Source: Antedon mediterranea (taxonomy: Eukaryota > Animalia > Echinodermata). Taken from it: a stretch of 64,000 nucleotides of DNA. The stretch covers positions 18,741,365-18,805,364 of the forward strand of contig NC_092678.1 of assembly GCF_964355755.1 (NCBI RefSeq). The letters run 5' to 3'. Below, piece after piece: positions 964 to 60,762 of the stretch. A program made the translations under genes and the position numbers. Each line of letters begins with the position of its first letter. Position 1 is the first letter of the stretch. The notes under the pieces are model-generated. The model had not been told where the DNA came from, did no database searches, and saw only the letters and a program-made list of their open reading frames with translations.

Positions 964-3900
964 AAGAAATTCAAACGACTTCTTTCACTACTCAGAAAAA
1001 GACAAGTAAGTAATAATTTGTTATAATACTTTATGTTGCATATCTGTCACTAGATACATCTTGACTGACTATCGCAAGTCATCTAGAAACGAATCGTGTT
1101 TTGAATGTGATTAAAAGTACTTGTAACTTGTGATGGTCAAAAGTTAAGATACATCTAGTGACAAAAACAAAAACCAGGTGTTGTTAACAGTAAGTTTTGG
1201 TTTAGGAAAATTCTCAATTTTTGTCCTGTAATTTTTGTTATGGCTATGGGTTGAAAAAAACTTAATTAAGTTTCATTATGTACATTTCTTTGTTAAATAT
1301 TAGCATATGACTGTGATGGTAAAGTACACGGAAATTATTACGCCGTTCCAGACGACCGTTCTAAATTCTACACTTGCCTCAATTCAATCCCACAAATTCA
1401 ACAGTGCCATCCAACTACTCTGGTGTATAACGAATTAACAGGAGTTTGTGATTACCAACGCAATATTGCAACAGGTAAATAATGATAATGCTGTGTCTTG
1501 TGGCTAATATAGTAGATAAGCAATGAATGGAAAGAAGCCGTTCTTTTGGTTTGCAAAATTAATCTTCAAAAGAAGCCGATCTCAAAATTAAGCCACCTTC
1601 TTTATAAAACAGTATTAGCTTATGGGCTTTTTAGAGGTGAACTGTACGTAAATGTCAAGAAATAGAAATAAACAATACAGATGGTCATCTAGTTGGATGG
1701 CAGACTGTAGACTGATGATAATATGGCTGATCATAGTGTGTCAATATTAATGACCTTAACTATCTCAACAATCAAGCATCGTCCATTTATGTTTTTTGTT
1801 GGCAAATAATGGAAAATGTCTTATTATTGTCGTATCCAAATATTAACTAAATTGACAGCATTCATTGTGCAAAAGTAATCTCGAAAAAAAAAGCCCAACA
1901 AAGATTTTGAAAAGCATGTGCTTCTTTTCGATGTTTTACTTTACCGTAGTTTGTGAAATCAAAGAAAATAAAACAAGTTACTAATGAGAACATCTAGGCT
2001 ACAATGGTTAACACCTGTAGTAATCAAACGTTCATAATAAAATGTCTCCTATTATGTGTATTTAAAGTCGGTGTAACATAATCATGATTTTCCGAGTTTA
2101 TATGTGCATAACTTAACAACATCAGGCGCTTTAAAACTGTTGGATACAATGTTTTATTATAAAATGATTTTTTTTTAAAGGTAATTTAATTGTAGGCCCA
2201 TTCGTTATACCTGTCACTAACAGTTCCTCTGTCTTATGTATTAATGGTTCAAATAATCTCCTATTTTTAAAAATTGTATGTATATATATATATATATATT
2301 TGTTCAGATCATCCCAGACCATCACAAGACCAGGTTGTGTTTTTCACTAGAACTGTAATGTATCGCTGTGGTGGGAGTTTGGTTGTAATCAATGGCACTG
2401 AGTACAGTTTTCCAGGTGCTGCAGTTGGTGAAATTATAAAGTCTAACCAAAAATGTCCACTTTATTCGAATGAACATGGTAAATATAATAATTATCAATG
2501 TAGCGTTACAAATGTATTATATAGATGCATTTTTAGATCTGCAAAATTATTTTTCTGAAACAAAATAACGTCATAGTAAAACATGCTCATGTATATGCGT
2601 GCATACTCATATGTATTCATTGTGATGGTTTCGTCAAGGAAATTTATAGAGGACGTAAAATTCGATAATCATTCGTTGTCATTGTTACTAGTGACCAATT
2701 ATAAGACGGCACTCTATATCGCGTGATCGTTGGAATGTTTGGAATGAATTGATATAGGCCTACATGAAGAGGCACGCTGTGGCGCATAAACAAACCACTT
2801 ATCGTCTGTGGACGATACCCTGTTATAGACCATATATTAGTATGCACATCTGAAACTTACTAATATCTACTGCGTTAAAATACGTCCACGTCACAGCGGT
2901 GAACAAATTATATACAGTCTAATATACACTAATGTGTTGTTTTTCTAGTTTCGCTTGCAACACGGTATTGTGTTGGAAATTCCGCTTCATGGGCTGAGCA
3001 TGGTCCACTCAATTTTACAGAATGTGATGTTGGAACAACTTCAAGACAAATACAACGATTGGATGAGGTATCAACATGCATCATTTCACAATAATTAGCT
3101 TTCGATTTTGTGACGTACTTGACTTTTGACGTCATATTCACATGAGTTTGGTCAATTGTAGGTTCAGTTAACGACCGTGAATTCAATTATAACATATATT
3201 CACACCTGGGTCATTACAACAAATTTACAGAGCTGGGCGGGTAAAATTTATTTATAAACTTATTTGACTTAAAAAGGAAAGACATTTACAATGCATAATT
3301 TAGTTACAAATGGTTCATAGTAAAAAAAAAATATTTAAAAATATAAAAACGAATATACATATTGCCATGTTATGTTTGTTTTTAAATATGTGTATTCTAG
3401 CATAAATAAAGTTCTGCTTTGTAATTTTATTTCAATATATTCCAAAAGGGAGCCTTCTGTGTACTGATATCGGAAGGTTATTCCAACATTCCTTTGGTTT
3501 AGATCCGAATTCGCGGCATAAAATCCGGTTCCAGGCATCAAGTCGCGACCCAAATGCCCAGATGTAGCAATGCAAGGAAGAATATCAAATAGACCGGCAC
3601 GTCAACCCCAACAGGTAGTTTAGAAATACAATTTCATTGGAATTTTGGGGGTTTTTTTTGAGAAAAAAATAGCGCTGATGATCCACCAAAAATATTCAGC
3701 GCATCCCGACGCAACGTTCCACAATTGCGTTTTTGAACGTCGTCAACGTTAGTGCCGTAGTTTTACTTGATTTACTTCACGAGTTGTAAAAATAACGTTT
3801 TTCTTTCCGGATTTCTTGCTTCCCGTTACTGTGTGAAATCCAGATGATTTGATTTCATGTAGCGATGTTTGCACTGTTGCGTTGTGATTACGCAAATACG

Positions 3901-6900
3901 TCGTTCTTTGGTCTAGAAACTACATTTAAGGCAAATAACGCAAGTAGGCATACATTATCGTTTGTTATTATAGGCCTATAAGATGCTCTATCCCGTTTAA
4001 ACGTCTTTCTGTCGATAAAACAATGGTTACTGATTTCTTAGATTGAAATTACACAAGGAAACGGCAAGGATGTGGCAGAGGATCTTGCAGTAGTCATCAA
4101 CAATGCAGAAGATATCGATAAAGTGGCGGTTGAGTTAGTTGCAGGTATCCTGGAAGATATTGTTGACCTTGGAATTCCTGATGAAACGGTGATTTGTTTG
4201 TACAATACATTTTCATTATTATTATTTTAAATATTGTTTTCTTGTAGTGAGTTAGCTAAATATATTATAATGAAAATTATATTATGTTATTGTGTTTACA
4301 GATAGCATTAAACGTGGTAGACGTTATTGATAATATCATCGAATTTGACATAATTGACGCATCAATGAGTGAAACAGCGTCATCATTTGTGACGTCATTG
4401 GAAATACAACTTGCAACAATGGCCAAAGCAGGTATGAACTTTTCCAGTGTACAACCAAATGTTGGTGTGATGGCATTAGCAGTAAGCCCAGAATATCTAG
4501 TAGATGGGCTAGCATACGTTGCTTTCTCTGACGGCGACTCGCTCAAGGAAGCTTTTGAACCAGACGATGTAAAAACGTATTACGAGAAGACATTTCCTTT
4601 TGAAATGGTAGGAGCGTCGATCGCGCTTCCACATGAGATTATCTTACTTGGCCAAAAACAAACAGTAGAATATGAGATCCGAGTATATTTTACAGTGTAT
4701 CAGAACCGTTCGTTGTTTATTTCAAACAGCTTAGGTAACGCGTCTGGAGAAGGATTTACGCGCCAAGTTGGCAGTCAGATTATTTCAGCTACAATAGAAG
4801 CAGTCGAGATCGATGGCCTAGTAACACCTATAAAAGCTTCTTTTCTACCACGCGTTGTAAGTACTTTATACAAAAAAACCATTTGTACTTGTGATGCCAT
4901 ATTGTATATTACAATGACAACTTTTCTTTTCTCTCAGAGATGTGGAAGAAAATTATAACATTTATACAATATGTCGCCGAATATAAACACACGATGAAAT
5001 TGAGATTTGTAGTTTCGTTTTTTACTCTTTCTACAGAAAAATGGTTATAACACAGAGTGTGTATTCTGGGATTTCTCACTTGATAATGGAGTAGGCGATT
5101 GGTCAAGCGAAGGATGTGAGCAAAATGGAACAGCAGATGGTCGTGTTGTATGCTTATGTGACCATCTGACCAACTTTGCTATTCTTGTTGTAAGTTATCA
5201 ATTTTATCTCTTACAATATTACAAATTATGTATGCTTATTATCCAAAATACCTGAGATTAGTAAGTTTCAAAATGATTTGTAAGAGAAAAAAAATACAAT
5301 CAACTCTCTTTTCCCTGACCTTGCTATTTTTTAAAACACTGATTATTATTTGAAATATAGTAGACGTATAGACAAAGTAGAAGAAATGAAAAAAAAGTTG
5401 AAGACTAAATCTAGTTTTAAAACAATTTTGAGCAGAGTCAAACAAAAAATGTACCTAGTACTATACAAAAAAATCTGTAAACATTTTATTAATAATTACT
5501 ATTATTAATTATATTCAAATTTACAAAAAAAAATTAACGTTTAATTTTGAAAGGACTATTACAGACATAAAGATGGCCAATTCCAAGATGTCTTAACTCT
5601 TATCAGTTTAATCGGATGCGTAGTGTCTATTGTGTGTTTGGCAGTTACCGTAGCAACACATTTGTGTTTTAAGTAAGTAGCAGTAATTGGAAAAACTGTC
5701 CCAGTGAGATGGGAATTTTTTGTTGTATTGATGGTATAATAGATCCATATTTTAGATTAAAAAAACATACCATGAATTTACTTTATTTGTTGAAAATATG
5801 TGTTACTTCCATAATCAATTGTTTATGATAAATAATTTGTGGAATAATTATACATGACATTTCTATTTGTTTACATTATAGTTTTTGCTCACTGGATTAT
5901 TTTATTTAAATAAAACGATTGATGTAAGATTGTTGTACATTGTTAGTTATGTAATTAAAAGTGTTGGTTGTTTCGGTGTAGCAAACCTCGAGAATATCGT
6001 AGTACTGTATAATTGCTTTATTACTTGACTGTCTCTACTAATTAATATTATGTTTTTATTGTAGACAATTTCGAACAAAACGTCCACAAAAGATCCTCGT
6101 AAACCTGTCACTATCGTTGCTTCTCCTCTACCTCGTGTTTGCAATTGGCATCGAGCAAACAGGTTCTAAAAATGGATGCATCGCTGTAGCAGCGCTGATT
6201 CATTACTTTGGATTGGCCTCTATTTTCTGGATGTCAATCGAAGCTGTAAACATGTACCTAATGTTCGTCAAAGTCTTCTACGATGAAATTAGATATTTTA
6301 TGCTGAAAGTTTGTATAACGGGCTACGGTAAATATTGTTAAAAAACACAAATTGTTCTTGTTTTTAAAAACTAATAATTTATGATTTCACTTCACTTGAC
6401 TATGGTGCCTTAATATTTCGCTCGATCTTAAAGATGTATTTTCCCCCAAAACATAAATATTGAAGATAAAAGAAGACTTTAAATAGGCCACTTCGCAGGT
6501 TTAACAAAGTTAATCACTTCTGTATAAAAAATCCTAAAAAGTAATGTTTTAATTATAAAACCCCACTGACTTTTTGCTTTCAATTACAGTTTTTCAGGTA
6601 AATATAACTTATTTTGTCGACCTAATTTGTTGTAAAAGTGAATAAGAACAAAAACATAAAACAAATATCCATGGTTATTTGCCAATAGTTATTTCTTTTA
6701 AAATTTCGAATAAATAAGCATCGAGTTATTCGACTAAACCATTATATTGTGTTTGTTTTTTAAGGCGTTCCTCTGGTAATAGTTGTACTTTGTCTGGGTG
6801 TTGATATTGATCACTATGCAAAAGAAAATTAGTAAGTACAAATATCAATATTATAATAATGAGACATTGACACGACAAAGCTCGTGAACTATTTTATCAA

Positions 6901-7462
6901 AGAGTATGACGTAGAGGCTAACCTAAAAAGCTAAACTGTACATTATTTATGAATTCTTTTTTGCAGCTGTTTTATTCCTTCGGGAAATGTTCGCAACTAT
7001 GGCTTCATTCTGATCATCGGCATACTATTTCTGTTTAATGTTGTAGTGTTCGTTTTAGTTATGCGTGCATTGACTTGCGGACGAAGAAAGGTTGCCAACA
7101 AAGTTGATCGAATCAAGAAAGATATAGTCATCAAGCGTCTTCAGAACGCTATTGCGGTGTCTGTTCTTCTAGGCCTAACCTGGGTTTTTGGATTCTTTGC
7201 AATCGACCCCGATTCGACCTCTCGCGACGTGTTTCAGTTGTTGTTCTGTGTCTTTAACTCTCTGCAAGGCCTGTTCATTTTTCTGTTGTTCTGTGTTCGC
7301 CAGAAGGATATTCGTGACGCGTGGAAGACATGTTGCAAAGATAGTAACAAAGCTAAGAGAGTTAAATACGCTACCGATTCTAGTAACAGCAAGGGTAAAG
7401 TCAAGGACCAGGGTATTCCTTTGACAGGATATTCTACTAATGGTAAAAATACTGCTATTTAG
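964..7462 (+). CDS. Adhesion GPCR G1 (5'-incomplete): Thr-rich linker - CBM14/peritrophin-A chitin-binding domain - HRM - GAIN/GPS - 7TM
   Basis: Exons 964-1005, 1304-1474 (YDCDGKVHGNYYAVPDDRSKFYTC...QQCHPTTLVYNELTGVCDYQRNI), 2308-2478, 2949-3067, 4042-4188, 4302-4856, 5037-5189 (CVFWDF...GDWSSEGC...CLCDHL/TNFAILV), 5554-5672, 6065-6327, 6765-6831, 6967-7462 (LLGLTWVFG, FNSLQGLFIF). All have AG/GT ends and compatible phases. No signal-peptide exon seen, so the start is probably upstream of the window. Confidence 0.88.
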
Positions 7463-10588: not shown

Positions 10589-10825
10589 TATATATATATA
10601 TATATATCTTATTATAAATGTGATGTGCTGATGTGAAACCTTTTTTGCTAAAACTTAATTCGCGTAGTGGCAATAAGAGTTAGGCAAGAGACTTCCGTTG
10701 GCGTGCCTCATCCTCATGATGAGACATAAATATGGGTCCCGTGTACACATTTTATACAATTAGTAATATTTTATTGTAGAAGAGCGTTATATAAGAAAGA
10801 GCTATCTCTTATGTAATTATAATTA

Positions 10826-13375: not shown

Positions 13376-16300
13376 ATGTATACCAGATTGATAACCGTTG
13401 TTATTCTTGCACTTCCATGGGTTGCATGGTCATTTGATCACCAGGTTTATGAGCAATGCTGTAAGTAGGACACTTATTATTTTCTTAAAGATTTATTGTC
13501 CCCCTGAAAATTGGTTCTTAACAACATTTTTGTTGAATATGCTATTTTAATGTAACATAATAGTTATCTACTTTGACCAACACTTGGATCGAAAAAAATG
13601 TATTTACTGGAAAAAACTGTAATTTAAAGCAATTTGGCTGCCAGAAAATGGGTTTTTTGTTGAATTTATTTTGTCATTTTATAAGTGAAAACATTATTTT
13701 TGTATGTGTTTTTTCTACGCAAGTGTTTAACTTTATTAAAACTACAAAATAACATATTATTCAAAGTCAAATTTAATTAATCTTCATATTCATGTTTTTG
13801 GGGACAATACATCCTTGACCAAATAAAATGTGATTCTAGCTAATATTCAAATTTGTGATGTGACTGTACGATCATTTCATTTTATTTATTTCGTCTCATA
13901 TATAACAAAAACTAACAAACAATAGAGAGAGACAGGATTCCCAAAAGCGAATTAAATCAAAAATTAACTTTAAATTTAATAACTATTTCAATATTTTCAC
14001 TGAGATCCAGCCACTTATGATACCCACGGTATTACAATTGTTCAGTAATTTTACTTTTGATTTTGTAGGTCGTATATTTGATGAACAATTTCCAACCAAT
14101 GAAAGTTCAACACGGTTTGGATACATAAAGGCTTCCCCTGCATTTGATAATGATACGGGTCCACGACCAGGAAAACGAGGTGAATCTGTTTGTTCACATA
14201 CAGACGAAGAAAATGGTAAGAATGATATTGTTACTCAAATATAATGCACGTACGTTGGTACGGTTGGTAAGGTTTCAACCTGACCACTTTTTGACAGAGG
14301 TTTTTTCGGAATCATGTGGCCCACATGGGACAATGTGTATTGTAATTTTGGGTGTAATGAGTATTACCAACATGAAATTCATGATTGCATATAAAATACA
14401 TTTGCAAAATTAGATTACAAGAGGGAGTAAAAAAATCATTCTGCTACTTAGGTAATGCCTTCACCATAACTAGTACACCAATCAATAATGTAGGCCTTTG
14501 GTGGAACGACTCACGACGACAAAATGCAGATGCCGATATCAATGTCTTCACAAATATTGATCATGCACACAATTTCTTTCAACAAAAATAATGTTTTTAA
14601 CTAATTTTACTATTTGTTTGCTTTAAATTACAATTTATTTCAGGTATACATTTTTAGATCCAATTTTGGTCAAAGTGAATACTTATTATGTAACCTTCTT
14701 AAAATACCATGTTCAACAAACAATGAAAGTGTTCAGAGGGACAGTTATATCTAATAAAAATAGGCAAAGTAGATTTATTTATTGTTTTTTAAGCTATTGG
14801 AACTTTCTGTTTTCTGAAAATATACATTATGCCAGGGAAGAGTGTATGCTTCTCAGTTTCATAAGCATTGTAACATTGATGTACATGGTCGCTGCAAATG
14901 AATATGAATAACATGGGTAAATTCCCAACAACATATGGCGATCCATCCCCACACTGCGGTTGTATAACCACGGTAGTCATAAAACGTATACAATCTCCTT
15001 TTAGATACTGCTTAGTGTGAGATTATTCAAATTTGATAATTTTGTCTATAGAACCGTGGTGGTACGTAAATTTACAAGATAACTACGTGATTGAATATGT
15101 TGTTCTATTCAACCGTCAAACAACCCGTAAGTTAGCACAAATCTATCTATCTAGTTGAAAATCGATTATAATTAATTACGTTATTACATGCGATTTAAAA
15201 TAATAATGTACGATGTTTGTAGTACAAACCTAACCTTATTATCACCAATGTTATGTATTTACTGTATTGTAGGCCTATCCATTTGAAAGAATATGATTAT
15301 CACATAATATAGGCGCGCCTAATAACAATTGTATTACCATTATACCATAATGATTCAGTATAACATTATTATCTATCCTGTTATAAATAATTAATTTTCT
15401 ATACGTTGGACCATTTATTTTATATTTATACTAACTCAAGTGTACTCGTGGAACCAAATCAAAGTTGTTTGTGTCGAATTGTAACAATACAGTTTTATTG
15501 TATCTTAGAAGACCGCCTGGAAGGTGCGCAGGTACGAGTCGGAACCAATACAAGACGTTTAAAGAGCAATGACGCGTGTGGAAAACCAGTATCCTACAAG
15601 GATGCGATGGTACCAGCTGGGATAATAGTGGTAGAATGTGAAAATGGCACAGAAGGCAACATTGTATCAGTCCAATTAGAAAACCAGACAAACTTTCTTA
15701 CATTGTGTGAAGTTAAAATATACGGCAGTCTAAACAATGGCAAGTATTGCGCAGGTTACTAATAGTGCCAAACAAATACACAATGAAAAATATATTTTGA
15801 AAATATCAAATATTATAAGATAATTTCTGTCACTGTATTTATCTCAGTGATGCTTGCCCAGTCTGTCAAAGTACATTTCATAGGCCTACCAAACTTGTGT
15901 TTTCAAACTTCGTGTTTACCATCGTTTAGAGAAGTATATGTTGTCTGCCTATATTACTTAGGCCTACTAGAGGCTGTCAATTGTTCATGTGCAGGATCAC
16001 ATTACCGCAAAGACTTTTATTTAAGTTTAAGTTCACACATCAGAGAACTAGTTTGCTACAACAGCGTAAACTGTTTATCAAAGGTCTACACTAGCAAACT
16101 TTAGTGAACCTTTCTTGCAAAACGCGTTTTTTAGTGTAGAAGTGAACAATAGACCTGAAACATTTTCATTTATTTTCAGAAGCAGATCTTGACATTCTGA
16201 CTACTGTCGTCACGGTTACCGATGATATTACCAGTCCTTCTTCTATTTGTATTGGAGAAGACCAAAATGTTAATGGTACTACGTACAGTTTTCCAGATGT

Positions 16301-45500: not shown

Positions 45501-48500
45501 AGTCCTTCGGTTTTGGTGCAGCAGACTATGATTACGTCATTGTTTTCATAGAACTAACTATATTTAACCAAAACACCGATGTTGCAATATACGCTCAAAC
45601 GTTTGATGGTATAATAATCACTTTTGAAGCAGAATCCTTTCCAATTGACCTGACTTTTGATCAACCAATTAAAATCAACAACACGTCTACCTACAAATTT
45701 GCACTAACTAGTCGTTCTGATTCTCGCATTCAATTATCTGACGAAGCTATTACAGTTAAAGGGGTTACCTGTGAAAACAGCTCACCAGAATGTGTTCAAT
45801 TTTTAAGTGGTTGGAACGATCAAGTATCTAAACAGGTGAACGCTGGTTGCAGTCAGACAAATGTTGAATTTACAGCTCTTGAACTTTGCTTTGGAAAGTT
45901 TTCTGAAGGTACAGTATTATTCAAACATGTATTTTACATATACAGTAATTTATAAAGACTTCAGACTCGAGTATGCTCTAAAAATGAAATTGAAATAGAA
46001 AAGACTTCTTATCATGCCAATAAATATGTTCATGTTCTAGTAAATCCAGACCACCATTTTCTACAATTTTTTGATGTAAGAAAAATAATGTTAATCTAAG
46101 TAATAGGATTTTGTTAACTTCACGCCTTTTCAATCTTGTATATTTGTCTGTTACATTAATTTTCAATTTAAAAGCTTTCGTTAAAAACACACACACTTTG
46201 ATATTTTACTTTCAGATCCCCAACTAGTTCGTAGCCCTGAATCTCATGACGGTGATATTGGTATGACAGTTACATTGGAATGCATTATAGAAAATGTGGA
46301 GTTTTATGAATGGTATAAAAACGGCGACCGTATTCCAAATGCTAACAGTCCTACCTATCGAGTGCTGCTAGACCAAGGCCAGAACCAGGGTGATTATACG
46401 TGTTTTGGATATAGATCTCAAGATGGAGAAAACGCAGAATCAGACGTTGCTACAGTGCTTATAACAGGTCAGTCACATATATCACTTCTTTAGCTAGTCA
46501 TGTTCCAGAAAAGTTGATACGATACATGTTTGTTACTATAATATAAATGAAAATAAATGTGTTCAGTTATTATAATCATGTCTAGGTATATTGATCATGA
46601 TCTCTTTATACTGGTAATGTTTATTTAACACTTTTCTATTGCTTATTAGGACTGTCTACTTTTAGAGTAAATGTTAGATTTAACATTCCATTCAAGGCGG
46701 CTTATGGCGACAAAGATAGTTTGGCATTCCACAATTTCACAAACGAATTGCTACTTTCTGTAAGTATTTTAATTTCGCACACAGGCCTAACAATTTAAAC
46801 CATAATTATTACAATGTTTGTATAAGTAAATTATTGACAGTACATTAATAGTGAAAGTTTTCAAAAACAACTGGATTTATAATTTTCAAGAGCGTTAGCA
46901 TTTTAAGCCTCAACTCCTCTTATTAGCAATATTACCAGTAAATTATATTTTTATTTCAGTTGTATGAAAGTTTACCTGAAGTTTCTGACATTGTTGTAAT
47001 GAGCCTGATATCTGGAAGTGTTATTACTGAGATGGAGTTATACTTCAGCCAAGCTCAAAATGCGACCACATACAGTTCTATTATAAACGATTCTCTAGCT
47101 ACTTTGGAAGGGTATGATACAGACCCTGGATCTATTGTTGTGACAAGCATATGTAAGTTGTTTCACAAAGTTATTGGACCGACTATTTTATGGATATTAT
47201 AGACTATTATTCCGGTAGTGTTTGTCGTTTCTAATATAATTTAACTACTTACTTAATGAATTATACTGTGAGCAAACATTGTTTTTACAAAAACAAAATA
47301 TTATTATTTGTGTTTTTCCTAATAATACAGCGGCATGTATTGGAGAGGACTTGATAATTGATAGCACTTTGTACAGTTTTTCAGATGCTCCACTTGGTGT
47401 AACTGCAGATTCAATACAAGACTGCCTGCTATATTCACATCAGGGTAATAAAAAAACTTACCAAGTAAACTCCAAGTTTGTTATTCTACTAAGTTACTTT
47501 TATGTAACTTCAAATGTGGGAAAAACATATTTACGTTTACTAAACATAAACAAAAAATTTGTATACAAATTAATAAAACGCCAAACCGCTTCTGGTACAG
47601 TCTGGAATGTTATTATATTTTGTTTATTACAATGTAAATTGCTATCAACGTTACTAAAGTTTCTTTAAGTATAAAATGTTAGCCAAATAGAGATATGTGT
47701 TTGTGTAACTTTTTTCCACAGATTTAACTATTCCTCTTGCAACTCGATTTTGTAATGGCAATTTTGTGTCAGGAGCTAAATGGGATCCTGTCATAACCAC
47801 AGAGTGTGATATAACAAATTCTAGACTAGAAGAGGTATGTTTAATTAATAACAAAAATATTAATAATAATATCTTGGATTTATAAAGAGTTGTGAAACTG
47901 TCGTGCCCAAGGACACAATCAATGCGACGAGAGTTGGATTCGAAACCACGATATCATGATGTAGTCCAACGTATCTTGCCTTGATTGTTTTACTTCTTTT
48001 TTTTTTCTCCTCCATTTTTTTTTATCAATTCTCCAGGTTGAAGTTACAGACGACAATGTGTATGTAGTAGCAGACTCTCTCGCAGAATTCACAAACGATA
48101 CCGAAGTTCTTGATGAGCAGTCAATTGAGTCAGTTGCAAACATTTTAGAAGATATTGTTAATCGTGAGAATCCCGATGAAATGGTATGTACGTGTTTCCA
48201 TTATCAAACTACAAAAATGAACTTTGAACTTGAAGTAGTCTTCGGTTTGAACGCCAGATCATACTTCAAAAAATATAATGTCTTGGTTATATATATTCTC
48301 CATCCTAATCAGTTTGAGTAGGGATGACCTCTGTTCGCTTAACTTAGTTTTTTGAGGTGTACTTATAGTAAAAATAAAATATTAAAAGCAGTAGATACTA
48401 TAAAACGTTTAATGAATGCTATTTTGGATATGGAGCTAGCATCTAAGTCATGAAGGACTGGTCTAACTGAAGATGTTAACACGTTTTGGGTTAGTAGATA

Positions 48501-51500
48501 GTAATATTATTATGGTTAGTTTATGAGGTATGGTAGGGTGCAAACGTACCACAAGCCTTGCTGAAAATATTTTATTTACAGATAACTTTAGATGTGGTTG
48601 AAGTTGTCAATAACATTATTAATTCTGGCATGCTTAACTCATCAATGAGAGAAACAGCATCGTCATTTGTGACGTCATTGGAAAGACAACTTGCAACAGT
48701 GGCAGCAGCAGGCATGAACTTCACCAGTGTTCAACCACATGTTGGCGTGATGACTTTAGCAGTAAGCACAGAATCTCTAGTAGACGGATTAGCATACGTT
48801 GCTTTTTCTAACGTCGAATCGCTCAAGGATGCTTTTGAACCAGACGATGTGAATATATATTACGAGGATGTTCCTTCCTTTAATATTGTAGGAGCTTCAA
48901 TCGCTCTTCCGCCTGATATTTTCTCACTTAGTCAGGCTCAAACGGGCGTAGATGAGATCCGAATGTATTTTACCGTTTACCAGAATAGTTCTTTGTTTTT
49001 TTCGAACAACGTAGTTAATGCGTCTAGAGAAGGTTTTACACGCCAAGTTGGCAGTCAGATTATTTCAGCTTCAATAGAAGCAGTCAAGGTTGATGATCTG
49101 GTAACGCCAATAAATGCTGCTTTTCTACCACGTTTGGTAAGTACTATACGCTTACTGTAAATCAATAAATTAAATACAGACATTTCTATATCAATTTGTT
49201 CCTCCCCCCACCCCACCTTTTTTTAAGGATGGTCATTCGACAGAATAAGAGTGTAATAGTTTTGTGCAACTTCCATATTAAATGTTCGAGATTTTTTTCG
49301 TTTAATGTTTATAATGAACAAACGCAAAGTGGTGATTGCATGCCACTATGGAAGCCATATCGGATCAAATAAAGAGGATAACTAACCATATGTGTACGTA
49401 TGCGTCTAGTAGAAAAAACTTGTATACGCTTCAACGTTGAGTGCAGCTTTTGTGGTAGCGCTAACTCTGTAGGGCCTACATTAGTATTTCTACAAAATAA
49501 ACGTTTTAATTTGTTTAAGTATATTTAAAAAATATATATTCATTTAAATATTTGTCTGCGTTACACATCAAACAAAATGGTAACATATTTAAGTGAAGGT
49601 TTATATTTTGGAATACTTTTTGTAGGAAACTAGTAACAATACAGAATGTGTTTTCTGGGATTTTTCACTTGATGATGGAGTAGGTGATTGGTCAAGCGAA
49701 GGATGTGTGCTAAATAGAACAACAGACGGTCGTGTTGTATGCTTGTGTGACCATCTTACAAACTTTGCTATTCTTGTTGTAAGTTAATTTGCATCTTTTC
49801 AGGTTGTCTTTTCCATAAATGGAAACAATTGTTTTATTCGGTGTGTGGTTAAAGAAGATCTTTGTTATAGTTGTATTATTATCAATATTAATCATTATTA
49901 ATCATCTAACCAAGCATTCACCATAATACTAAATAATGTTTAAATTAAAATTAAATGTAGTATGGTTTTCTGGACATAAAACGTTTGTATTAAATTGTTA
50001 CATTAAAAAAAACATATACAATTCAATTTCCATTAGTCGTAATTTTTTTTAAATAAAAACATTGTTTGAATTAATTATTTTTGAAAATAACTATTGCATA
50101 ATATGAAGGCCTAATATAAAATACAAAATGTCTAAGTTATTTTATTTTACAGGACTACTACGAACCTAAAAAGTCTCCTCCGTTACACGAAGTCTTAACT
50201 ATTATCAGTTTAATAGGATGCATCGTGTCTATTGTGTGTTTAGCAGTTACAATAGCTACGTACTTATACTTTAAGTGAGTACAGTAATTTTTAATTAAAT
50301 ACATACAACTATATATTAATTAATTTCGTGAGTAAGCCTACTATATAACACATTTTATATAAATAATAGTTCGTTTTTAATAATAAGTAAAGTTAGTTTA
50401 GCTTCTTTCTACTGCTTTTTATCGCAGACAATTTCGAAGTAAACGTCCACAAAAGATCCTTATAAACCTGTCGCTATCACTGCTTCTCCTCTACCTTGTG
50501 TTTGCAATTGGCATCGAGCAAACAGGTTCTAGAAATGGATGCATCGCTGTAGCAGCGCTGATTCATTACTTTGGACTGGCCTCTATTTTCTGGATGTCAA
50601 TCGAAGCTGTAAACATGTACCTTATGTTCGTCAAAGTGTTCTATAACAATGTTGAATACTTCATGCTGAAATTGTGTGCAGCAGGTTACGGTAAATATGT
50701 ATTTTATTATGAACTGTCCCAAACAAAACTATAATAATACCTTTGAATCATAAATTATAACCAAGCAATTCCAATAAAATAAAAATGCATCAACAACACC
50801 AACTGACACCAACTCTTACAATAAAAATATTTTGTATTATCATGTGTTTAGGCATTAGATCAGATTATCTTATAAAATCATTAATTTATTATCCAATTGA
50901 TAATAATTTTTCATATAAATATTATACATTGTACACCTTTGTTATCGAATGGAATGGCAAGTAGTGTGATATGTGTCGTGGTTTTATAGCCTTCTGACGA
51001 ATAATACTAAAACAATCCAAACACCAGTCTAACCCGTACTCGCAATGAGCCACGATTAGTTGATGCATTCAATCATTCATTATTTACTAGTGCCATCATG
51101 ATGCTATGATGCTGCCGGTTTGCTCTGGCACTGAATACAACTGAGATAACAAATTGATTTAAATTATCATTGTTTTATACTGTTTTCAGGGTTTCCTCTG
51201 GTGATAGTTGCAGTTTGTCTTGGTATTGATGTTGATCACTATGCAAACGAACATTAGTAAGTAATATATATCGGCAAATAAAACGATAAAATGATAATTA
51301 TTACTTATAATAACGAATGTTCAACGACATGACTAAACAAACGCAAAAAACCCAGACCCTAAACCGACAGGACCTACATGTAAAAATAAAATAATGAGTA
51401 AAAAAACATGCTTAACAGTTTAAAGAAATGTTTTATATCAACCTAAATTGAACTTTGAACTAAATAAGACTACGAAGCACAACGTAAACTATGTTTCTTC

Positions 51501-52100
51501 GATCGATTTTATATAACACTCTTAGCCATATTTCATCAACCTTCAAGCTTTTTTACTTTATATAACACTATTTTTTTCAGCTGTTTCATTCCTTCTGGGA
51601 ATGTTCGCAACTATGGCTTCATTCTTATCGTCGGCATACTACTTCTGTTTAATGTCGTAGTATTCTTTCTGGTAATGCGTACGTTGATTTGCGGGCGAAA
51701 AATTGCTAAAACAGTTGACCAAACGAAAAGACATATAGTCATAAAACGTCTTCAGAACGCTGTTGCGGTTTCTGTTCTTTTAGGCCTAACATGGTTTTTT
51801 GGATTCCTCGCAATCGATGCAGATTCGAGCTCTCGCGACGCGTTTCAGTTGTTATTCTGTGTCTTTAACTCTCTGCAAGGCCTCTTCATTTTTCTGTTGT
51901 TCTGTGTACGACAGAAGGATATTCGTGACGCGTGGAAGACATGTTACAAAGACAGAACCATACCCAAGAAGGTTACTACGGATACTATTAATAGCAAGGG
52001 TAAAGTCAAGGACAACAGTATTCCACTGACAAACACTGCTAGTAGAGACAACGAGAATATTTCAACTTTAACAAAGACTAGTTTTAATATTTCTGAGTAA
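29916..52100 (+). CDS. Large adhesion GPCR G4: SP - 8xFN3 - 2xEGF - LDLa - X1 - Ig - X2 - Ig - SEA - HRM - GAIN/GPS - 7TM
   Basis: SP 29916-29960, 30386-30410. FN3 31201-31476, 33658-33909, 35961-36254, 36829-37080, 37251-37541, 37896-38159, 38579-38875, 39418-39675. EGF 40846-40950, 41393-41536. LDLa 41738-41857 (C..NEFAC.SGECI...CD...DCADNSDE). X1 42688-42851, 43102-43218, 43696-44029. Ig 44497-44698, 44900-44967. X2 45306-45908. Ig 46216-46467. SEA 46650-46759, 46960-47152 (GSVI). HRM 47331-47444, 47722-47834. GAIN 48037-48183, 48582-49136. GPS 49626-49778. 7TM 50153-50274, 50428-50690, 51190-51256, 51581-52100. All phases are compatible. Confidence 0.87.
31545..31830 (+). mobile_element. 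5S rRNA-derived sequence (5S pseudogene or SINE3 head) with downstream body
   Basis: tacggccttac...caccggtt...ctgat..ctgaagttgagca...ggtta..cttagataggagac...aatatcgggtgctgta follows the 5S rRNA consensus over ~31545-31665; body boundary approximate. Confidence 0.65.
32243..33033 (+). mobile_element. Helentron/DINE-like non-autonomous element
   Basis: aacaag start; (GACA/GACC)n tracts within ~85-bp direct repeats at ~32279 and ~32935; ends tatagagtcgcgactaaaaa. Confidence 0.6.
34415..34530. repeat. Short tandem repeat (ccttgttgaatact)n
   Basis: About 7 imperfect units visible. Confidence 0.7.
35087..35622. mobile_element. Kolobok-like non-autonomous TIR element
   Basis: TTAA|agatgtattgt ... 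tacaataaatct|TTAA. Confidence 0.55.
37662..37891. repeat. ~117-bp tandem duplication of a MITE end plus polypyrimidine tract, upstream of an FN3 exon
   Basis: caaaacaagccccggtat...tagtgtagacggagctttaagtaaatgtatttt..tacttctttg occurs twice; the TIR matches the 58447 MITE. Confidence 0.8.
40235..40470 (+). mobile_element. tRNA-derived SINE
   Basis: A box TAGCCGAGTGG; B box GGTTCAATGCC; core ttcactcagctgtaaaatgagtacc; possible TSD tacctagt at 40227 and 40467. Confidence 0.7.
42070..42618. repeat. (CTA)n/(CTG)n microsatellite, intronic
   Basis: Directly visible; it produces the spurious poly-Leu ORF 42064-42687. Confidence 0.97.
47895..47990 (-). mobile_element. tRNA-SINE head fragment
   Basis: Minus strand has B-box-like GGTTTCGAATCC followed by gtgtccttgggcacgac. 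Confidence 0.45.
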
Positions 52101-54090: not shown

Positions 54091-57000
54091 ATGGAAAAGT
54101 TAATATATACCGGCTTCGTCATCCTAACGCTTACATTACCCGCGTTTGAACAGGAGGAATACGAGGAATGTTGTAAGTACGCCTATTTAACATACAGAAG
54201 ATGGTGACAATATATTAGTTCTTATCAATTATCGATTACCGATTCCCCCGTATTCCCTCAGGGGAGTTCCCCACCAGAGGTGCTGACCGGTCGTGGTCGA
54301 CCAATGATTTTTACTTTTTTTGTTTACATAATTGTTGTTGTAGGTTGTGTATGTAGATAATTAAATAATAGTCCACATACTGACAAGCACGCGCTTCTTT
54401 TTGGTGTACTGTTGGGTGTTGTTATTGTAAAATTGTAGTAATTGAAATTGTAATTGTTAATTGTAAATAAAGCTTGGTTCCCATTAGAACGTAACGCAAG
54501 GACGTAAACGCAACGCAAGCGTTTTAACCAATGGCAAAGGAAGTTATAGACAGTTAGCAATCACAAGCGAATAAGCCATCGCTTGTGATTGGTCAATTCA
54601 CTTGCGTTGCGTTACGTCCTTGTATTGCGTCGCTAGTGGGAACCACGCTTGTTATAACGGTAGTAGGTTTAGTACTAGATAGTCTGAACTACCACACGTA
54701 CTTTTTTTTAAAGGAGATTTTAGTAGGCTATATAATATTGAATAATAACAGACCTATTTATGCTTTTGCTCAATATTTTAATGATGTACCCAACTCTAGG
54801 CCTGTACATCTTCATACATTTGGCGAAAACATTTGGCGATCGATGTTATTAACTATAGTTTCCCGGTGCAGTTGTTGTATCTATAAAGAGTTTTCCCAAT
54901 TTACTAAGTATTAACAAGTTGCATACAAATACATTTTCCTAACGGGATAATTTTACTATGATGTACGGTAAGTTATCGTTCCATGGATGGATTTTCCTTT
55001 TAACTGCGATTATTTTCTTTTGTAGGTCGTATATTTGATAAAGACTTTCCTACTAATGAGCGCTCAACACGTTCTGGCTACTTATCGGCTTCACCAGCCT
55101 TCGATAATAATACGGGTCCAGAACCTGGAAATCCACGGGAAGCAGTATGCTCACACACAATAAAGGAAAATGGTAAGATGAATTTATTATTTTGTATTTA
55201 TTTTATTCAATTTGCAAATAAACAATCAACAATACAAATAACAACGATGTAATACCATGTGGATTGACACTAAACACGAAAACTAAACACTACATAATGG
55301 GCTATCCATGATACAAACAGAATTAAAGCAATATCTATAGATGGCAGGGAGTTGTTAATTATATTTAACAACTCCCTGTATAAGGTATGTAAATGTAAAT
55401 TTCATTAACAAAACTGAACAATAGATTAGAGCATGCATGAAAAAGGATGATGCAAATGATTATTTACAATTAAAGCCGCTTGATACAAGATAGGAGAGCG
55501 GTCGCAGATTAGTTCTGGCATTTCATTGTGTTTAATGTTAGCTGATTCGGTACATCTACAACTAAAATCAACAAAACCATGAGTGAATTTCTTTGCTCCC
55601 ATATAAACTACGAAAAAGGTAAAATTGATTATACTATTCCAAGTGTTATCTGCGAATGGTAGTTTTATAGACGGATCCAAGTGATATATACAACATGACA
55701 ATTATTGATTCAGCATATCCGAAGGTCCATTAATCAACTATGATTACAAAATGATAATAGGGCCTACATAATTTTAAAAAATATAATCTTTTTTACTGCG
55801 TTGACAACTTTCAATTATTTCAATGTACATGCCAAGTCGTTGTTTAGTCGTTGTTAAGTCGTTGAATTTTGTTGCTATGTAATTTTATTGTATTAACCTT
55901 TTAACTTTGAGCAATTGTATGTCACATAAATTTCCGTATGGACAAATAAAATGAACTATGAACTATTATCATTTTTGTTTATTTTTACAGAACCGTGGTG
56001 GTATGTTGATCTAATGGACATTTACGTCATAGAATACATTGTCGTAATCAACCGTGGATCAAACTGTAAGTATTCAGCATGTGTTGTGATTAGATTTATG
56101 CTATAACTAACATGTTTAGCGTAAGCTCAATTCATTGGAAATGTTCGTTTTGAAATCTTCTGTACCCAGACATACTTAAATTATTAATATAATTAATGGT
56201 AGCTAAGGATACCATGGAAAAAGAAGGTGAATGGTATTAATTTGTTAATAAATATGGACAACCCACCAATGATAAAATATATAATTTTTGTTTTATTATT
56301 AAACATGTAATTCATAGCTGAACGCTTATATGGTGCGCAAGTACGAGTGGGAACAAGTAAAGGCAATTTAAAGAGCAACAATGCATGTGGAAACCCTGTA
56401 TCATCCAAGGATGCATCGGAATATGTTGTGGCAATATTGTTAGAATGTGAAAATGGAACAGAAGGCAATATTGTATCAGTACAATTGGAAAACAGAACCA
56501 ACTATCTGTCATTGTGTGAAGTTAAGATATACGGCAGACCAATAATCATTGGTAGGAAAACAATTGCGGTATTTGTTTAGAAAAATAATTAGTTAATAAT
56601 AACCTTTGTGCTTATGAAAATTATTCTGCTTCTAAAACCGTAGTCCTGTAATGTGATGACTTTTGTATCGAACAGAGCATTGTGAGGTTTGCTCAAGTAT
56701 AGGCCTAGACTAACTTAATTTCAAACGTTGTTTCATAATAGTCTTTATAACGCACTGTAAGTAAACTATGCTTAACATTCTTATTAATAGATTATAAAAT
56801 ATTAGAAACATTCGCTACTGTAACTGCTTCAGCTACTGTTTGCCTTGGAGAAGACATGGAGGTCGATGGTACTTGGTACAGTTTTCCAGAAGTTGCACTT
56901 GGTGAAACTGCAAATTCAACCAAACGCTGCCCGCTGTATTCAAACAAAGGTAATGATGTTATACAAATAATGTTTATGAGTGAAATGGTACAATTAATTT

Positions 57001-60000
57001 CATACCAATAACACTTTATCTGTGTATAACACACTACACTGAATAGAATATATAGGCCTAGGCTTAGTTAGTCTAGGATAGCGATACTAAAAATCCTAGG
57101 TAACTACAACTAGGCTAATTCTGGTTTTTTTTCAAATGATTCTACGTTTTATTCCACGATTTAATCAAACTAAAAAGAAGCTTTTTGTTCTAGAATAGTA
57201 CACATCGCTACAGAAATGTTAGTTACGACCAACTGCCATTTTGAATTGTTATGTATAGGTCAAGCTAAGAAAAATATAGCAGCGGTATTAGATTTTAACC
57301 TTGGCCTGTTGTTTTTTCTTTTCTTTTCGTTAACAACATTCTGGATCACTGTATATAACGTTGAGCGTGCTATAGTGTAGTTTATTGAATATCATGTGAC
57401 TCACAATCGTCTAATCAAATTACTGGGGTGGGTCTACATAATTCTTGGTGAATGTGCGCACATACATTGTAAAATGTAGTATAATATAATATGGTAACGG
57501 TTTGATTTTTGTAATAGGACACACAGTTCCACTTGCAACACGTTACTGTGATGGAGATTTTGTATTAGGAGCTGACTGGGGACGCGTCAATATTACTGAT
57601 TGTGACATTGGAACAACTTCAATTCAAATACAAAGAATAGATGAGGTATTATTAATTTTAATACAGTTATTCATGCAAAATATTATGTTTGGACTGCTTA
57701 TTTCCCATAACTTTTACCCAACATACACCAAATCTAACTTTAAATTTAATAACTTTAATTGAAAGACTACCCTTCCAGAGATTATTATAATTATTATTTT
57801 TCAGGTCGAGGTTTCAGAATATAATGTTGAAGACGTAGCTGATGCTCTTGCAGAAGTCACCAGCAATACGGAAAATCTGGATGAAGAGGCGATTGAATTA
57901 GTTGCAGGAATTTTGGAAGACATTGCTGACCTTGAGCTATCTGACAAAATGGTAGTTTTATTTTCTCTATGCGAAACGTTACCTATAAAAGTGAATATGT
58001 CAAATGAAACGTACACATTTTGCACAATTGTCAATACAACACTTATTGTATAATTGAAGTGAGTTGATTGTTTACTATTTTTCTTACAGGTAACTTTAGC
58101 TATGGTCAAAGTAGTCGATAACGTCATTGATTCCGGTGTACTTAGCTCATCAATGAAAGAAAGTAGGCCTACAATGTCATATGTAACATCATTAGAAAGG
58201 CAACTTGCAACAGTGGCGCAAAATCGAATAAAATGTTTCCTTAAAAATAAATAAAACATAAGGGGATTGATAACAGAACACAATCAGTTATGGAAAAGTA
58301 AATTCAAAATAAGCATAAGCTTCTAAAAAGGGACCACTAAAAAAGGTAATAAAAATGTAATAAAACTATTCAGAAAAAGTGATAAAATGAACTGATAGAT
58401 AAATGTACAATTAATATCTGACTGGAATGATGTAATGTGAATGTAAAGCTCTGTCAACACTAAAAAATGTACGATGTGCCCAAATATGGTAGTGATATGC
58501 TTAAATATGGTAGTGATATGCTTAAATATGGTAGTGATGTGCCCAAATATGGTAGTGATATGCTTAAATATGGTAGTGATATGCTTAAATATGGTAGTGA
58601 TATGACATTATCATGTCCATATATGAACAAATCACATGTTTTTGCGACAACATTTTTTTTGGTAGTGTAGACAGAGCTTTAGGATAATAATCGAAATCAA
58701 CAGAGATTCATTGAAATTTGTTAAGTATTAAAGAAGTTCGGACACAGTTTTGTTTACTGACAATGTTATCGATGTCCAAAACTAATATATAATTTAAAAA
58801 AATATTATTATTATATATATATTTTACAGGACTATTACGAGCCTACCGATTCCAGATTTCATGATATCTTAACCACCATCAGTTTAATCGGATGCGTTGT
58901 GTCTATTGTGTGTTTAGCAATAACACTTGCTACATACATATACTTTAAGTAAGTACTTATTCTTCCTAAAAAAGTATGTGAAAAACAATATATTTTTGTA
59001 GATAAACCATACTAAGTCAGATTTTAAGAATAACAACTTAAATTTATTTAAAGGTTTAAAGGTCTCTTTTTATTTTCTGAAGTATGAAGATCACACAATC
59101 AAGGTTTTTTATGTGACGATGTAGTATGTTAATGTATCTATTCTTAAATTTCAGACAATTTCGAACCAAACTTCCTAAAAAAATTCTCATAAACCTATCG
59201 CTATCACTGCTTCTCCTCTACCTTGTGTTTGCGGTTGGCATCGATCAGACAGGTTCTAGAAATGGATGCATCGCTGTAGCAGCGCTGATTAATTACTTTG
59301 GACTGGCCTCTGTCTTCTGGATGTCAATCGAAGCTGTAAACATGTACCTTATGTTCGTCAAAGTCATCCACGGGCAAATTAGACATTTCATGCTGAAAAT
59401 GTGTTTAGCAGGTTACGGTAAATGTTTTGATTTGTTTAACATGTCCAATTATCAAACCATTAACGGATGGCGTACGTACTTTATAAATGTTTATTTATTT
59501 GTTTTAAAGAAAATCTTATTTAAAAAAAACTTTAAGTAGTCCTACTTGAATATATGCTAATACTATTTATTTGACAAGTCTTCTGTCTTTATTTTTTTTA
59601 AATGTTTATATACATTTTTTTAGGGCTTCCTATAATAATTGTTGCAGTTTGTCTCAGTATTTATGTTGATCACTATGCGAACAAAAACTAGTAAGTATAA
59701 TCTATAAAATGAATGTTTATGAGCCGACGAACAATTTTTGAGTAAAAAGATTAGGCCTACTGAAACTCTTCTATTTCAATCATCAAGGCGGATCCGACAA
59801 TAAATTGAAGTATTCTCACCATTGAACGAATACAAAACATTAATTATTCGTTAATAACGCATGCGTAGTAAACAAATACTAAACAACACGTGATACAAAG
59901 TCAACCAATCCAAAACGAAGAAGATAAATTTACGTGTGTTATTAGGTCATGCAGATTATCACAAATTAAAGCCTATTGTTAGACATACCAAATCACCGTG

Positions 60001-60762
60001 GTCTTCTGTTAATAATTTTGTCTGCTCATGGATGTGTATCTTTCGTTGTAAATATATAATACAATATCAATAGGTTTTAATACAGATACAGGTTTTTTCG
60101 CAGGAAAATTACATGGTCGCAGTATATAATAATTTTAATGCAATTAAAAACTTAAACTAATTCTAAGTAGGCCTAAATTCATCAGATATTCCTGAAATTG
60201 AAATCAAATATCTCTGACAATGTTCGTTATGACATTGTATTCATGTAGAATAGCTAGGCAATGAGAACTTCACATATGTTTTGTCATGTACCACTATTTC
60301 TTTGTTATTTTATTTTGTTTCAGCTGTTTAATTCCATCAGGAAACGTTCGCAACTTTGGCTTCATTTTGATCATAGCAATGCTCATGATGTTCAATGTCG
60401 TCGTTTTCATTTTAGTTATGTTGAAATTGACTTGCCGACGAAAGATTGCCAGTGGTAAAGATCAAAACACGGTAAAGAAAGTCACAAAACGACTGCACAA
60501 TGCTATCACAATTTCGGTCCTGTTAGGCTTAACATGGGTCTTTGGATTTTTTGCAGTCGATGCAGATTCGACCTCTCGCGACGCGTTTCAGTTGTTATTC
60601 TGTATGTTTAACTCTCTGCAAGGCCTCTTTATTTTTCTGTTGTTCTGTGTACGACAGAAGGATGTTCGTGACGCGTGGAAGACATGTTGCAATAACTGTG
60701 ACAGAGCTAAAACTTCCAGATATTCCAATGATACCAGCAGCACTAAAAAAAGGAATTATTAA
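54091..60762 (+). CDS. Adhesion GPCR-derived G5: SP - F-type lectin - HRM - truncated GAIN (GPS deleted) - intact 7TM; functional variant or young pseudogene
   Basis: Exons 54091-54172, 55026-55172, 55991-56065, 56318-56551, 56791-56949, 57518-57645, 57805-57951, and 58090-~58218 (homology stops; TAA 58252-58254). No GPS exon. 7TM exons 58830-58948, 59155-59417, 59624-59690, 60324-60762 are all open. Confidence 0.75.
54471..54649. mobile_element. PIF/Harbinger-type MITE (second copy of 16871-17048)
   Basis: Near-identical sequence and TIR agcttggttccca. Confidence 0.85.
58447..58678. mobile_element. MITE with internal 21-bp tandem repeats
   Basis: taa|agctctgtcaacacta ... tagtgtagacagagct|tta; six copies of aaatatggtagtgat(atgctt/gtgccc). 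Confidence 0.8.

Follow-up and report, generated by a model that had tools for sequence, protein, structure and literature searches.

Most G protein-coupled receptors of the adhesion class (aGPCRs) are orphans, and their ligands are hard to find. Cleavage of their GAIN domain occurs at His-Leu/Thr, and the tethered agonist, which activates the G protein, is uncovered when the ligand-bound head is pulled. Vertebrate members of the ADGRG subfamily are stable single genes. These receptors (group VIII; ADGRG6/GPR126, ADGRG2/GPR64, ADGRG4, and ADGRG7/GPR128) have the same order of HRM-like, GAIN, GPS, and 7tm_2 domains as the crinoid array described here, and the best solved-structure matches of the crinoid core were ADGRG6 (E 1.2e-64) and ADGRG2 (7e-62); on the other hand, their heads are different. 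The term ADGRG-like refers in this study to best-match similarity and source names, with trees built without vertebrate sequences.

The head domains of latrophilins and BAI1 are conserved across animals. Although they belong to other aGPCR subfamilies and bear other head domains than the Antedon array, they are precedents for a lectin-fold head (rhamnose-binding lectin in latrophilins) and for microbe recognition (bacterial patterns in BAI1), and the same source lists rhamnose-binding lectin and pentraxin among vertebrate aGPCR domains (PMC13197933). F-type lectins are present in fish and amphibians (PMC5712786), and the first-pass annotation therefore overdrew the contrast with vertebrates, whose aGPCRs it took to lack such domains. 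In amphioxus, a lineage-specific expansion of aGPCRs was reported and domain shuffling proposed, with kringle, somatomedin B, C-type lectin, SRCR, LDLa, Ig, and discoidin heads; the accessible text mentions no head of chitin-binding or F-type lectin kind (PMC2246102). The "discoidin" head may be a precedent, being assigned to a Pfam family that F-type lectins also match. Mosaic F-type lectins include Drosophila furrowed and sea urchin SpCRL, and membrane-bound forms are known (PMC5712786); a fusion to a GPCR is nowhere mentioned in the searched text of two reviews. Among the titles and abstract openings searched, which left subscription journals uncovered, we found no report of an aGPCR headed by an F-type lectin or a CBM14 domain, nor of this crinoid family.

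Self-blastn of the window (the whole 64,000-nucleotide stretch of Antedon mediterranea DNA analyzed here) revealed five ADGRG-like copies with homologous exons on the same strand: three open (G1, G2, and G4) and two damaged (G3 and G5). The exon models had AG/GT ends throughout, except for a single GC donor at 15739, and the spliced exons gave open frames of 767 (G1, no start), 880 (G2), and 2,239 (G4) amino acids. G1 contains no start codon within the window, and its 5' end likely lies to the left. Pfam searches were performed on 35 single exons. The features are as follows.

964..7462, + strand: G1, open 11-exon model, 767 aa; linker, CBM14, HRM-like, GAIN, GPS, 7TM
964-1005, +: G1 Thr-rich linker exon (exon model)
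1304..1474, +: G1 CBM14 exon, phase 1-1, 4 cysteines (Pfam E 3.8e-11)
2308-2478 and 2949-3067, +: G1 HRM-like (GPR128_N-type) exons, fast-evolving, conserved Trp displaced
4042-4188 and 4302-4856, +: G1 GAIN exons (exon model and Pfam)
5037-5189, +: G1 GPS exon, His-Leu-Thr cleavage motif
5554-5672, 6065-6327, 6765-6831, and 6967-7462, +: G1 7TM exons (exon model and Pfam)
13376..23037, +: G2, intact 13-exon model, 880 aa; leader, F-type lectin, HRM-like, GAIN, GPS, 7TM
14069-14215, 15052-15126, and 15509-15739, +: G2 F-type lectin, three phase 1-1 exons (FBP32 E 1.4e-22)
25176..28513, +: G3 pseudogene (exon homology, lesions)
25176-25278, +: G3 leader of the G2 type (resembles G2 and G5 leader ends)
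25301-25523, +: G3 GAIN fragment with a stop (exon homology)
25924..27070, - strand: LINE-like 3' fragment in the G3 GPS exon (zf-RVT E 0.0056)
29916..52100, +: G4, intact 31-exon model, 2,239 aa
31201..39675, +: G4 block of FN3(-like) modules, eight phase 1-1 exons (exon model and Pfam)
54091..60762, +: G5; leader, lectin, HRM-like, GAIN-A, broken GAIN-B exon, open 7TM
55026-56551, +: G5 F-type lectin (exon model)
58090..58829, +: G5 lesion; GAIN-B homology stops near 58218, TM1 exon at 58830

The first-pass annotation had proposed five paralogs with homologous HRM-GAIN-GPS-7TM exons, and this was true for three of the five (G1, G2, and G4), in which eight core introns are found at identical places, as it had stated, and in identical phases (1, 0, 0, 0, 0, 2, 1, and 2). 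G3 is a pseudogene, and G5 has no GPS exon. In single exons, Pfam detected GPS (E 8.7e-19) and 7tm_2, the latter above the cut-off in G1 exons and in the database models P0001 (G4) and P0007 (G2); the G5 alignment covers all seven helices. By sequence, the His-Leu/Thr cleavage motif and tethered agonist are present in G1, G2, and G4. Although Pfam GAIN models scored weakly on this core (E 0.014-0.09), P0007 was alignable to ADGRG6 from residue 212-220 through GPS, i.e., over a full GAIN domain. The label HRM held less well: the Pfam match (E 0.053) did not reach the cut-off, and relatives gave GPR128_N and GPR128_GAIN matches. Phase-1 introns flank each of the 19 head modules found in G1, G2, G4, and G5, as anticipated; the acceptor position of the first HRM exon varies between copies, with 15-21 extra linker codons in G1, G2, and G5.

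The G4 head has the following order: a two-exon leader, eight FN3(-like) modules, two EGF, LDLa, X1, Ig, X2, Ig, and a SEA-like module, followed by the core (modules X1 and X2 are unknown domains). The fn3, EGF, LDLa, and Ig assignments of the earlier reading were reproduced by Pfam (LDLa, E 1.5e-9; fn3, E <= 0.005 in six of the eight exons, 0.12 in one, and no match in one), whereas SEA gave no Pfam match in G4, its score in paralogs being E 0.004-0.04. Module X2 yielded only scores under 0.9 in the Atlas (PHR, DUF4082, and lectin-like). The FN3 block is probably spliced to the G4 core, through a predicted joint; P0001 covers G4 only from 43696. Ig and SEA-like modules also precede the core in Anneissia (P0006, P0008, and P0009) and starfish (P0015, P0016, and P0020). 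The Ig/SEA head, thus carried by relatives in starfish and in a second crinoid (Anneissia), is likely the older one, with CBM14 and the lectin likely substituted for it later. Two Anneissia models (P0005 and P0010) are headless, and the lectin heads could accordingly have a greater age than the tree implies. Predicted ADGRG-like proteins of echinoderms and amphioxus with a homologous GAIN core (P0014, P0015, P0026, P0029, P0047, P0048, and P0051) bear fibrinogen, SRCR, VWA/Sushi, F5/8, EGF/HYR, kringle, or SUEL lectin heads.

That the head exons of G2 encode an F-type lectin domain was confirmed, and G5 has a corresponding domain. The G2 lectin shares sequence similarity and the basic triad with FBP32 of striped bass and eel agglutinin AAA (E 0.0016 for the latter), and its Atlas structure model aligned to an F5/8-type cluster (TM 0.79) and also to fucolectin clusters; lectin exon 1 alone gave no match in the solved-structure search, and the Atlas search with the G2 ectodomain gave no usable feature match. 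Among the 56 proteins collected, the only match to F-type lectin queries was the model of G2 itself. Both Arg residues of the His/Arg/Arg triad were placed by alignment and the His by spacing, for which we assumed the His numbering of AAA. The pattern is His-X26-Arg-X5-Arg in G2, with the same 26-residue spacing from His to the first Arg in G5, vs. a spacer of 24 in an F-type lectin review. The Arg-X5-Arg spacing and a loop shorter by one residue are those of the second domain of FBP32. Counting against a typical site, the Asp two residues after the first Arg and the vicinal cysteines are missing, again like that FBP32 domain, and Asn replaces Gly in the h2DGx calcium motif.

Pairwise dN/dS was 0.20-0.57 in 16 of 16 comparisons (0.29 for the lectin); the copies are under purifying selection, and these averages, all below 1, gave no sign of positive selection. 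A serious alternative, to which we give somewhat less than an even chance, accepts the receptors as modeled but assigns the new heads an adhesive or spacing role toward self matrix and in mechanosensing, like that of vertebrate ADGRG receptors, instead of microbe sensing, with their turnover being drift in a recombining array. The dN/dS values below 1, the closest solved relatives (ADGRG6, ADGRG2, and ADGRG4), the many unrelated heads that echinoderms and amphioxus have on this core, and the additional function of F-type lectins in fertilization (PMC5712786, PMC12221842) are consistent with it. However, the lectin triad was retained in G2 and G5 despite a dS of 0.73, a related core bears a third sugar-binding head (the SUEL lectin of P0051), and a sponge aGPCR was reported to increase upon exposure to microbial patterns (PMC6208332).

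The CBM14 assignment of the G1 exon was upheld by Pfam, with 43.4 bits for PF01607 against a gathering score of 22.1. It also matched the solved chitotriosidase domain (E 0.0016), the Trp of which aligns with Tyr. Only four cysteines remain of the six-cysteine/three-disulfide pattern, the two missing ones presumably forming one pair. The single-sequence fold model (pLDDT 56) was too poor for use. Whether this exon belongs to the receptor is a separate matter. In chitinases, a Thr-rich linker is followed by a terminal CBM14. The same order in G1 and the best solved relatives, which are chitinase tails, would fit an exon that ends the coding part of a chitinase or chitin-binding gene lying upstream, with the G1 core as a separate receptor whose leader was not seen or as an orphan. 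Read-through of the exon reaches a stop at 1480 and AATAAA at 1667, its acceptor is the weakest of the 62 introns, and no database protein matched G1 or joined CBM14 to the core. On the other hand, a strong donor (top 0.9% of GT sites) lies exactly at the domain end in the phase that fits the HRM exon, no leader exon was seen between 1474 and 2308, and the G1 core is open with dN/dS of 0.20-0.52 and therefore needs a 5' end. We regard the chitinase-tail reading as doubtful and splicing of CBM14 to the G1 core as reasonably likely. A candidate G1 exon at 2181-2275 was ruled out by its wrong phase and a 32-nt intron. CBM14 queries found no match among the 56 proteins collected, and a weak database search with the exon returned one candidate and no match.

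The leader of G3 is of the G2/G5 kind, as had been proposed; in-frame stops and frameshifts, including frameshifted TM exons, follow, and its GPS match is interrupted at 25923/27071 by the 1.15-kb LINE-like insert. G3 has neither lectin nor HRM exons, and its GAIN-A and last exons are missing as well. In G5, the large GAIN exon retains only ~43 codons (58090-58218), with most of GAIN-B missing, and no GPS exon was found before TM1; no database protein matched this copy. If this exon is skipped, the reading frame is preserved (619 aa). All 11 remaining exons and the 43-codon remnant are open, as would be predicted if G5 were an otherwise intact fourth receptor whose lesion is an error of assembly or a deletion confined to one haplotype, but the 5' and 3' halves of G5 have different nearest relatives, which fits a real deletion or an exchange with a neighbor. 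We regard the intact-receptor reading as unlikely. Columns common to only G4 and P0003 vs. only G5 and P0003 numbered 19:0 in HRM and GAIN-A and 1:10 in 7TM (Fisher p 3.7e-7), and the HRM tree excluded a G5+P0003 grouping (AU p 0.0013); the reverse test in the 7TM tree (G4+P0003+P0004) was not significant (p 0.19), and a G2+G5 clade was neither recovered nor rejected (7TM tree, AU p 0.09). The cores are therefore mosaic, likely through recombination between paralogs, and this applies to the "one shared core" of the first-pass annotation. Thirteen crinoid rows formed a clade in the whole-core tree (100/100; 7 of 14 inner branches open), as did seven Antedon rows in the 7TM tree (99/99). Tandem paralogs, pseudogenes, and a lineage-specific clade characterize birth-and-death multigene families, and the pseudogene, damaged copy, and clade found here bear out that description.

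The joining of lectin and core in G2 was examined with public reads, compared only with positions 13300-20700 (junctions of G1, G4, and G5 lie outside). G2 is transcribed: a contig of run X1, which we took as RNA by guess, no run being on record as RNA, was spliced from 18518 to 18928 within GAIN. Among the X1 contigs listed for this region, none contained the head-to-HRM joint, and the head-to-7TM splicing previously assumed was not seen in any transcript; the lack of cover at 16264-16510 (the 3' part of the first HRM exon) was not taken as evidence. One contig extends from the acceptor of lectin exon 3 (15509) past the donor to 15793, and in another (19573-19753) an intron is retained at the GPS exon. 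Independently of our models, P0007 connects lectin exons 2-3 with the G2 core, although P0007 and P0001 look partly ab initio because their short first exons differ from ours. The lectin leader is hydrophobic, and the G2 core has no other leader; the lectin exons are probably spliced to the G2 core. That they mainly encode a secreted lectin ending in the intron after exon 3, with the receptor minor or absent, is improbable: the donor is non-canonical (an alternative GT donor lies at 15754) and the contig runs beyond the in-frame stop at 15760, but the retained intron means that X1 contains unspliced RNA or DNA, no AATAAA or ATTAAA occurs within 450 nt of the read-through stop in G2 and no poly(A) signal follows the lectin stop in G5, and the G2 GAIN exons have a similar depth (5.8 vs 4.4).

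We favor, with moderate confidence, a tandem ADGRG-like family in which the Ig/SEA head was likely replaced by lectin (G2 and G5) and CBM14 (G1). Because the lectin has its own leader exon, it would have arrived by gene fusion rather than exon insertion: a core without a head may have been joined, at a phase-1 intron, to the leader and lectin exons that made up the 5' portion of a gene for a secreted lectin. Of the exon shuffling suggested earlier, head replacement at phase-1 introns thus stands, whereas simple insertion does not describe the lectin. Heads and cores would then have been propagated and reshuffled by duplication and unequal recombination within the array, at the cost of G3 and probably of G5. 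Fucosylated glycans, which may be of microbial, food, substrate, or self origin, would be the likely ligands of the lectin form, with signaling via predicted GPS cleavage and the tethered agonist. A bolder version, a young array capturing whole lectin genes within the Antedon lineage to place fucose, chitin, and galactose/rhamnose heads, remixed by recombination, on one ADGRG-type mechanical switch as a GPCR pattern-recognition repertoire, with a secreted/receptor switch at the GC donor of G2, is distinctly unlikely. Should the heads prove not to be spliced to the cores, the locus would amount to a plain tandem expansion.

Shuffling of domains among invertebrate aGPCRs has already been published (PMC2246102, PMC12716839), but inferred only from distant species; within the literature searched, the predicted F-type lectin and CBM14 heads are new. 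Here, head replacement would be caught at little divergence (dS 0.4-1.0), its intermediates still recognizable in the captured leader, the broken copy, and the mosaic cores. A fucose-lectin head on an ADGRG core would also be a simple tool for asking whether binding and pull on a swappable head suffice to release the tethered agonist.

Exon ends were fixed after the entire window had been read, and gene models were then translated. The base composition was that of AT-rich animal DNA. Three adhesion GPCR (aGPCR) copies were open:

964-7462: G1, 11 exons; no start codon seen within the window
13376-23037: G2, 880 aa
29916-52100: G4, 31 exons, 2,239 aa

The G2 model was 99.4% identical to its database model, P0007, over 808 columns, and that for G4, P0001, was identical along 1,271 aa and lacked all sequence before 43696. 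The large GAIN exon of G4 showed 100% identity to an Antedon mediterranea protein, and the remaining 8 of 9 matches came from A. mediterranea or Anneissia japonica. The window is therefore feather-star (crinoid) DNA. Eight core introns were common to G1, G2, and G4 at the same place and phase, and all three carried the His-Leu-Thr GPS motif. The first-pass annotation, in which five paralogs shared one core, was thus partly confirmed: the array, heads, and open frames stood, but a full core was found in only three of the five copies because G3 is a pseudogene, and G5 lacks the GPS exon and an intact GAIN-B. In G3, mid-GAIN exon sequence containing a stop began 20 bases after the leader, the GPS exon was interrupted by a LINE-like insert, the TM exons were disrupted by stops and by frameshifts, and no last exon was found. 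In G5, the leader, lectin, HRM-like, GAIN-A, and 7TM exons were open; homology in the GAIN-B exon was lost after about 43 codons, and no GPS exon was found. A transcript that skipped the GAIN-B remnant would stay in frame and encode a receptor without a tethered agonist.

A 21-bp tandem repeat (58473-58604) inside the G5 lesion adjoined a short element recurring near 40005, and a G3 intron contained a short open frame (27350-27727, minus strand; no Pfam match) with a Cys/His-rich end, resembling a retroelement 3' end. Nested non-coding elements of high copy number, some copies being inverted (10812-12972, 16627-17776, 54468-54650, and 63479-63635), including a palindromic unit at 16868-17047 with a second copy at 54468-54648, showed very high read depth in all four runs and are likely of MITE type.

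The heads claimed to be unrelated were CBM14 (G1), F-type lectin (G2 and G5, with the same leader in the pseudogene G3), and FN3/EGF/LDLa/Ig/SEA (G4). The G1 CBM14 exon (Pfam, 43.4 bits against a cut-off of 22.1) had four cysteines and a Tyr aligned with the Trp of the chitotriosidase domain. The G1 HRM-like exon at 2949-3067 showed a long branch (0.69) and a displaced conserved Trp; a relaxed or altered structure beside the CBM14 head is suggested. The G2 head matched the striped bass lectin FBP32 (E 1.4e-22) and also eel agglutinin, and His-X26-Arg-X5-Arg was kept in the G2 and G5 lectins. Compared with the F-type motif written in the available text of PMC5712786, the loop was one residue shorter and Asp was absent there; the spacing was the same as in the second domain of FBP32, in which that text describes the triad as retained. 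The G4 head comprised 8 FN3-like exons (6 at Pfam E <= 0.005), 2 EGF, LDLa, two Ig, SEA-like, and two unidentified modules. As claimed, head modules were bounded by phase-1 introns (phase 1-1 in 19/19). Since this is the common state of extracellular modules in animals, it permits, but does not prove, shuffling of heads. The G4 modules at 42688-44029 and 45306-45908 (~200 aa each; no Pfam match) had conserved counterparts in paralogs from both Antedon and Anneissia, the second module giving weak leads in Atlas (PHR, DUF4082, and lectin-like; scores < 0.9). The intron after the LDLa exon contained ~530 bases of CTA/CTG trinucleotide repeat (42070-42600), which opened long poly-Thr/poly-Leu frames and had no splice sites in the model.

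Joining of the G2 lectin head to the core is predicted, and argued for by the open frame, P0007, no other leader seen for this core, and no poly(A) signal within 450 nt of the lectin read-through stop. Reads of four of five public runs were examined over 13300-20700, one of which, X1, is RNA by guess. Because a 624-nt X1 contig spliced 18373-18518 to 18928-19405, at the predicted intron, G2 is transcribed and spliced, given that guess. A second X1 contig began at the lectin exon-3 acceptor and ran through the donor to 15793; the depth table suggests that 58 bases outside its listed piece lie on lectin exon 2. A third retained the intron ahead of the GPS exon, and X1 therefore contained unspliced material. 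No lectin-to-HRM bridge was found among the contigs listed for X1 and the other runs in this interval. In three runs from one other sample, genomic pieces spanned the unique parts of G2; the assembly itself may have been built from these runs. None of 13 exon alleles checked in the read table for this interval carried a stop. At the end of G2 lectin exon 3, 15739-15762 held a GC donor, then a weaker GT donor 15 bases downstream and, shortly beyond it, an in-frame stop; this arrangement may allow a switch between secreted and membrane forms.

The G1 CBM14 donor outscored 40 of 62 modelled donors and ranked in the top 0.9% of all GT sites, with a scoring matrix from the same introns; by contrast, the acceptor of this exon scored lowest of the 62, the exon was followed by a stop and AATAAA, and no database protein covered G1. 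For G4, Anneissia P0009 joined EGF-LDLa to a core of the same type, but no such model supported the FN3 block.

The cores were mosaic. In HRM+GAIN-A, P0003, a related database model, had 19 private columns in common with G4 and 0 with G5; in 7TM the counts were 1 and 10, respectively (Fisher p 3.7e-7, with non-independent columns and a contrast picked after the trees were seen). Forcing G5+P0003 in the HRM tree was rejected (AU p 0.0013; 13 rows, 4 left out), and the reverse 7TM test was not significant (p 0.19). Between G1 and G4, dS dropped from 0.86 in HRM+GAIN-A to 0.45 and then 0.38 further 3'. The pattern probably arose by recombination between neighbouring copies, and one such event may have produced G5. 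Pairwise dN/dS was 0.20-0.57 in all 16 comparisons.

A profile-free search with the G1 GAIN exon gave 43 matches, 35 of which were Pfam-scanned (8 short fragments left out) and 2 unrelated. Heads in starfish, urchin, sea cucumber, and amphioxus relatives were fibrinogen, SRCR, HYR, VWA, Sushi, F5/8, kringle, LRR, and EGF, and Ig + SEA adjoined the core in several echinoderm/amphioxus relatives. In the core tree of 17 rows (LG+G4 without a mixture model), thirteen crinoid rows formed a clade at 100/100 whose internal branching was not resolved, and the seven Antedon rows formed a 99/99 clade in the 16-row 7TM tree (truncated P0009 left out). Since Anneissia and starfish rows carry Ig/SEA heads, the CBM14 and lectin heads are most simply read as later replacements, a dating made less certain by gene conversion and by two Anneissia models that have no head. 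The lectin probably arrived by gene fusion, bringing a 5' end of its own, because G2, G3, and G5 have a common one-exon leader, unlike the two-exon leader of G4. Among other models, P0051, a more distant Antedon ADGRG-like paralog, was headed by a SUEL (galactose/rhamnose) lectin in one of its isoforms but not in the other (P0013), and its contig matched that of G2 and G4 in length. In amphioxus P0014/P0053, the same core type carried a ficolin-like head (fibrinogen C-terminal), and P0011, P0012, and P0014 each had two GPS motifs (tandem GAINs or fused predictions).

According to the available text of PMC12716839, a tethered agonist remains after GAIN cleavage in aGPCRs and becomes exposed once the head is engaged. 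In G2, binding of fucosylated glycans by the lectin head would be coupled to this switch; in G1, chitin binding would be, if the CBM14-core link holds. Immune sensing is one option for the array: the available text of PMC6208332 describes a sponge aGPCR induced by microbial patterns, and BAI1 is reportedly a further precedent. A role in self adhesion or mechanosensing has at least the same likelihood.

Novel heads and domain shuffling are in print, in the parts of the papers available, for aGPCRs of amphioxus (including C-type lectin and discoidin; PMC2246102), sponge (PMC4302439), and choanoflagellates (PMC12716839). The main text of two F-type lectin reviews did not mention GPCRs, and no report of F-type lectin or CBM14 heads on aGPCRs was found among the papers that literature searches listed. 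A precedent could stand in the domain lists within figures and supplements of the eLife and amphioxus papers, or in a 2015 F-type survey, which reportedly covered domain architectures. With head-core joints and functions that are predicted, the interest for specialists lies in these particular heads and their shallow, visible swap history.
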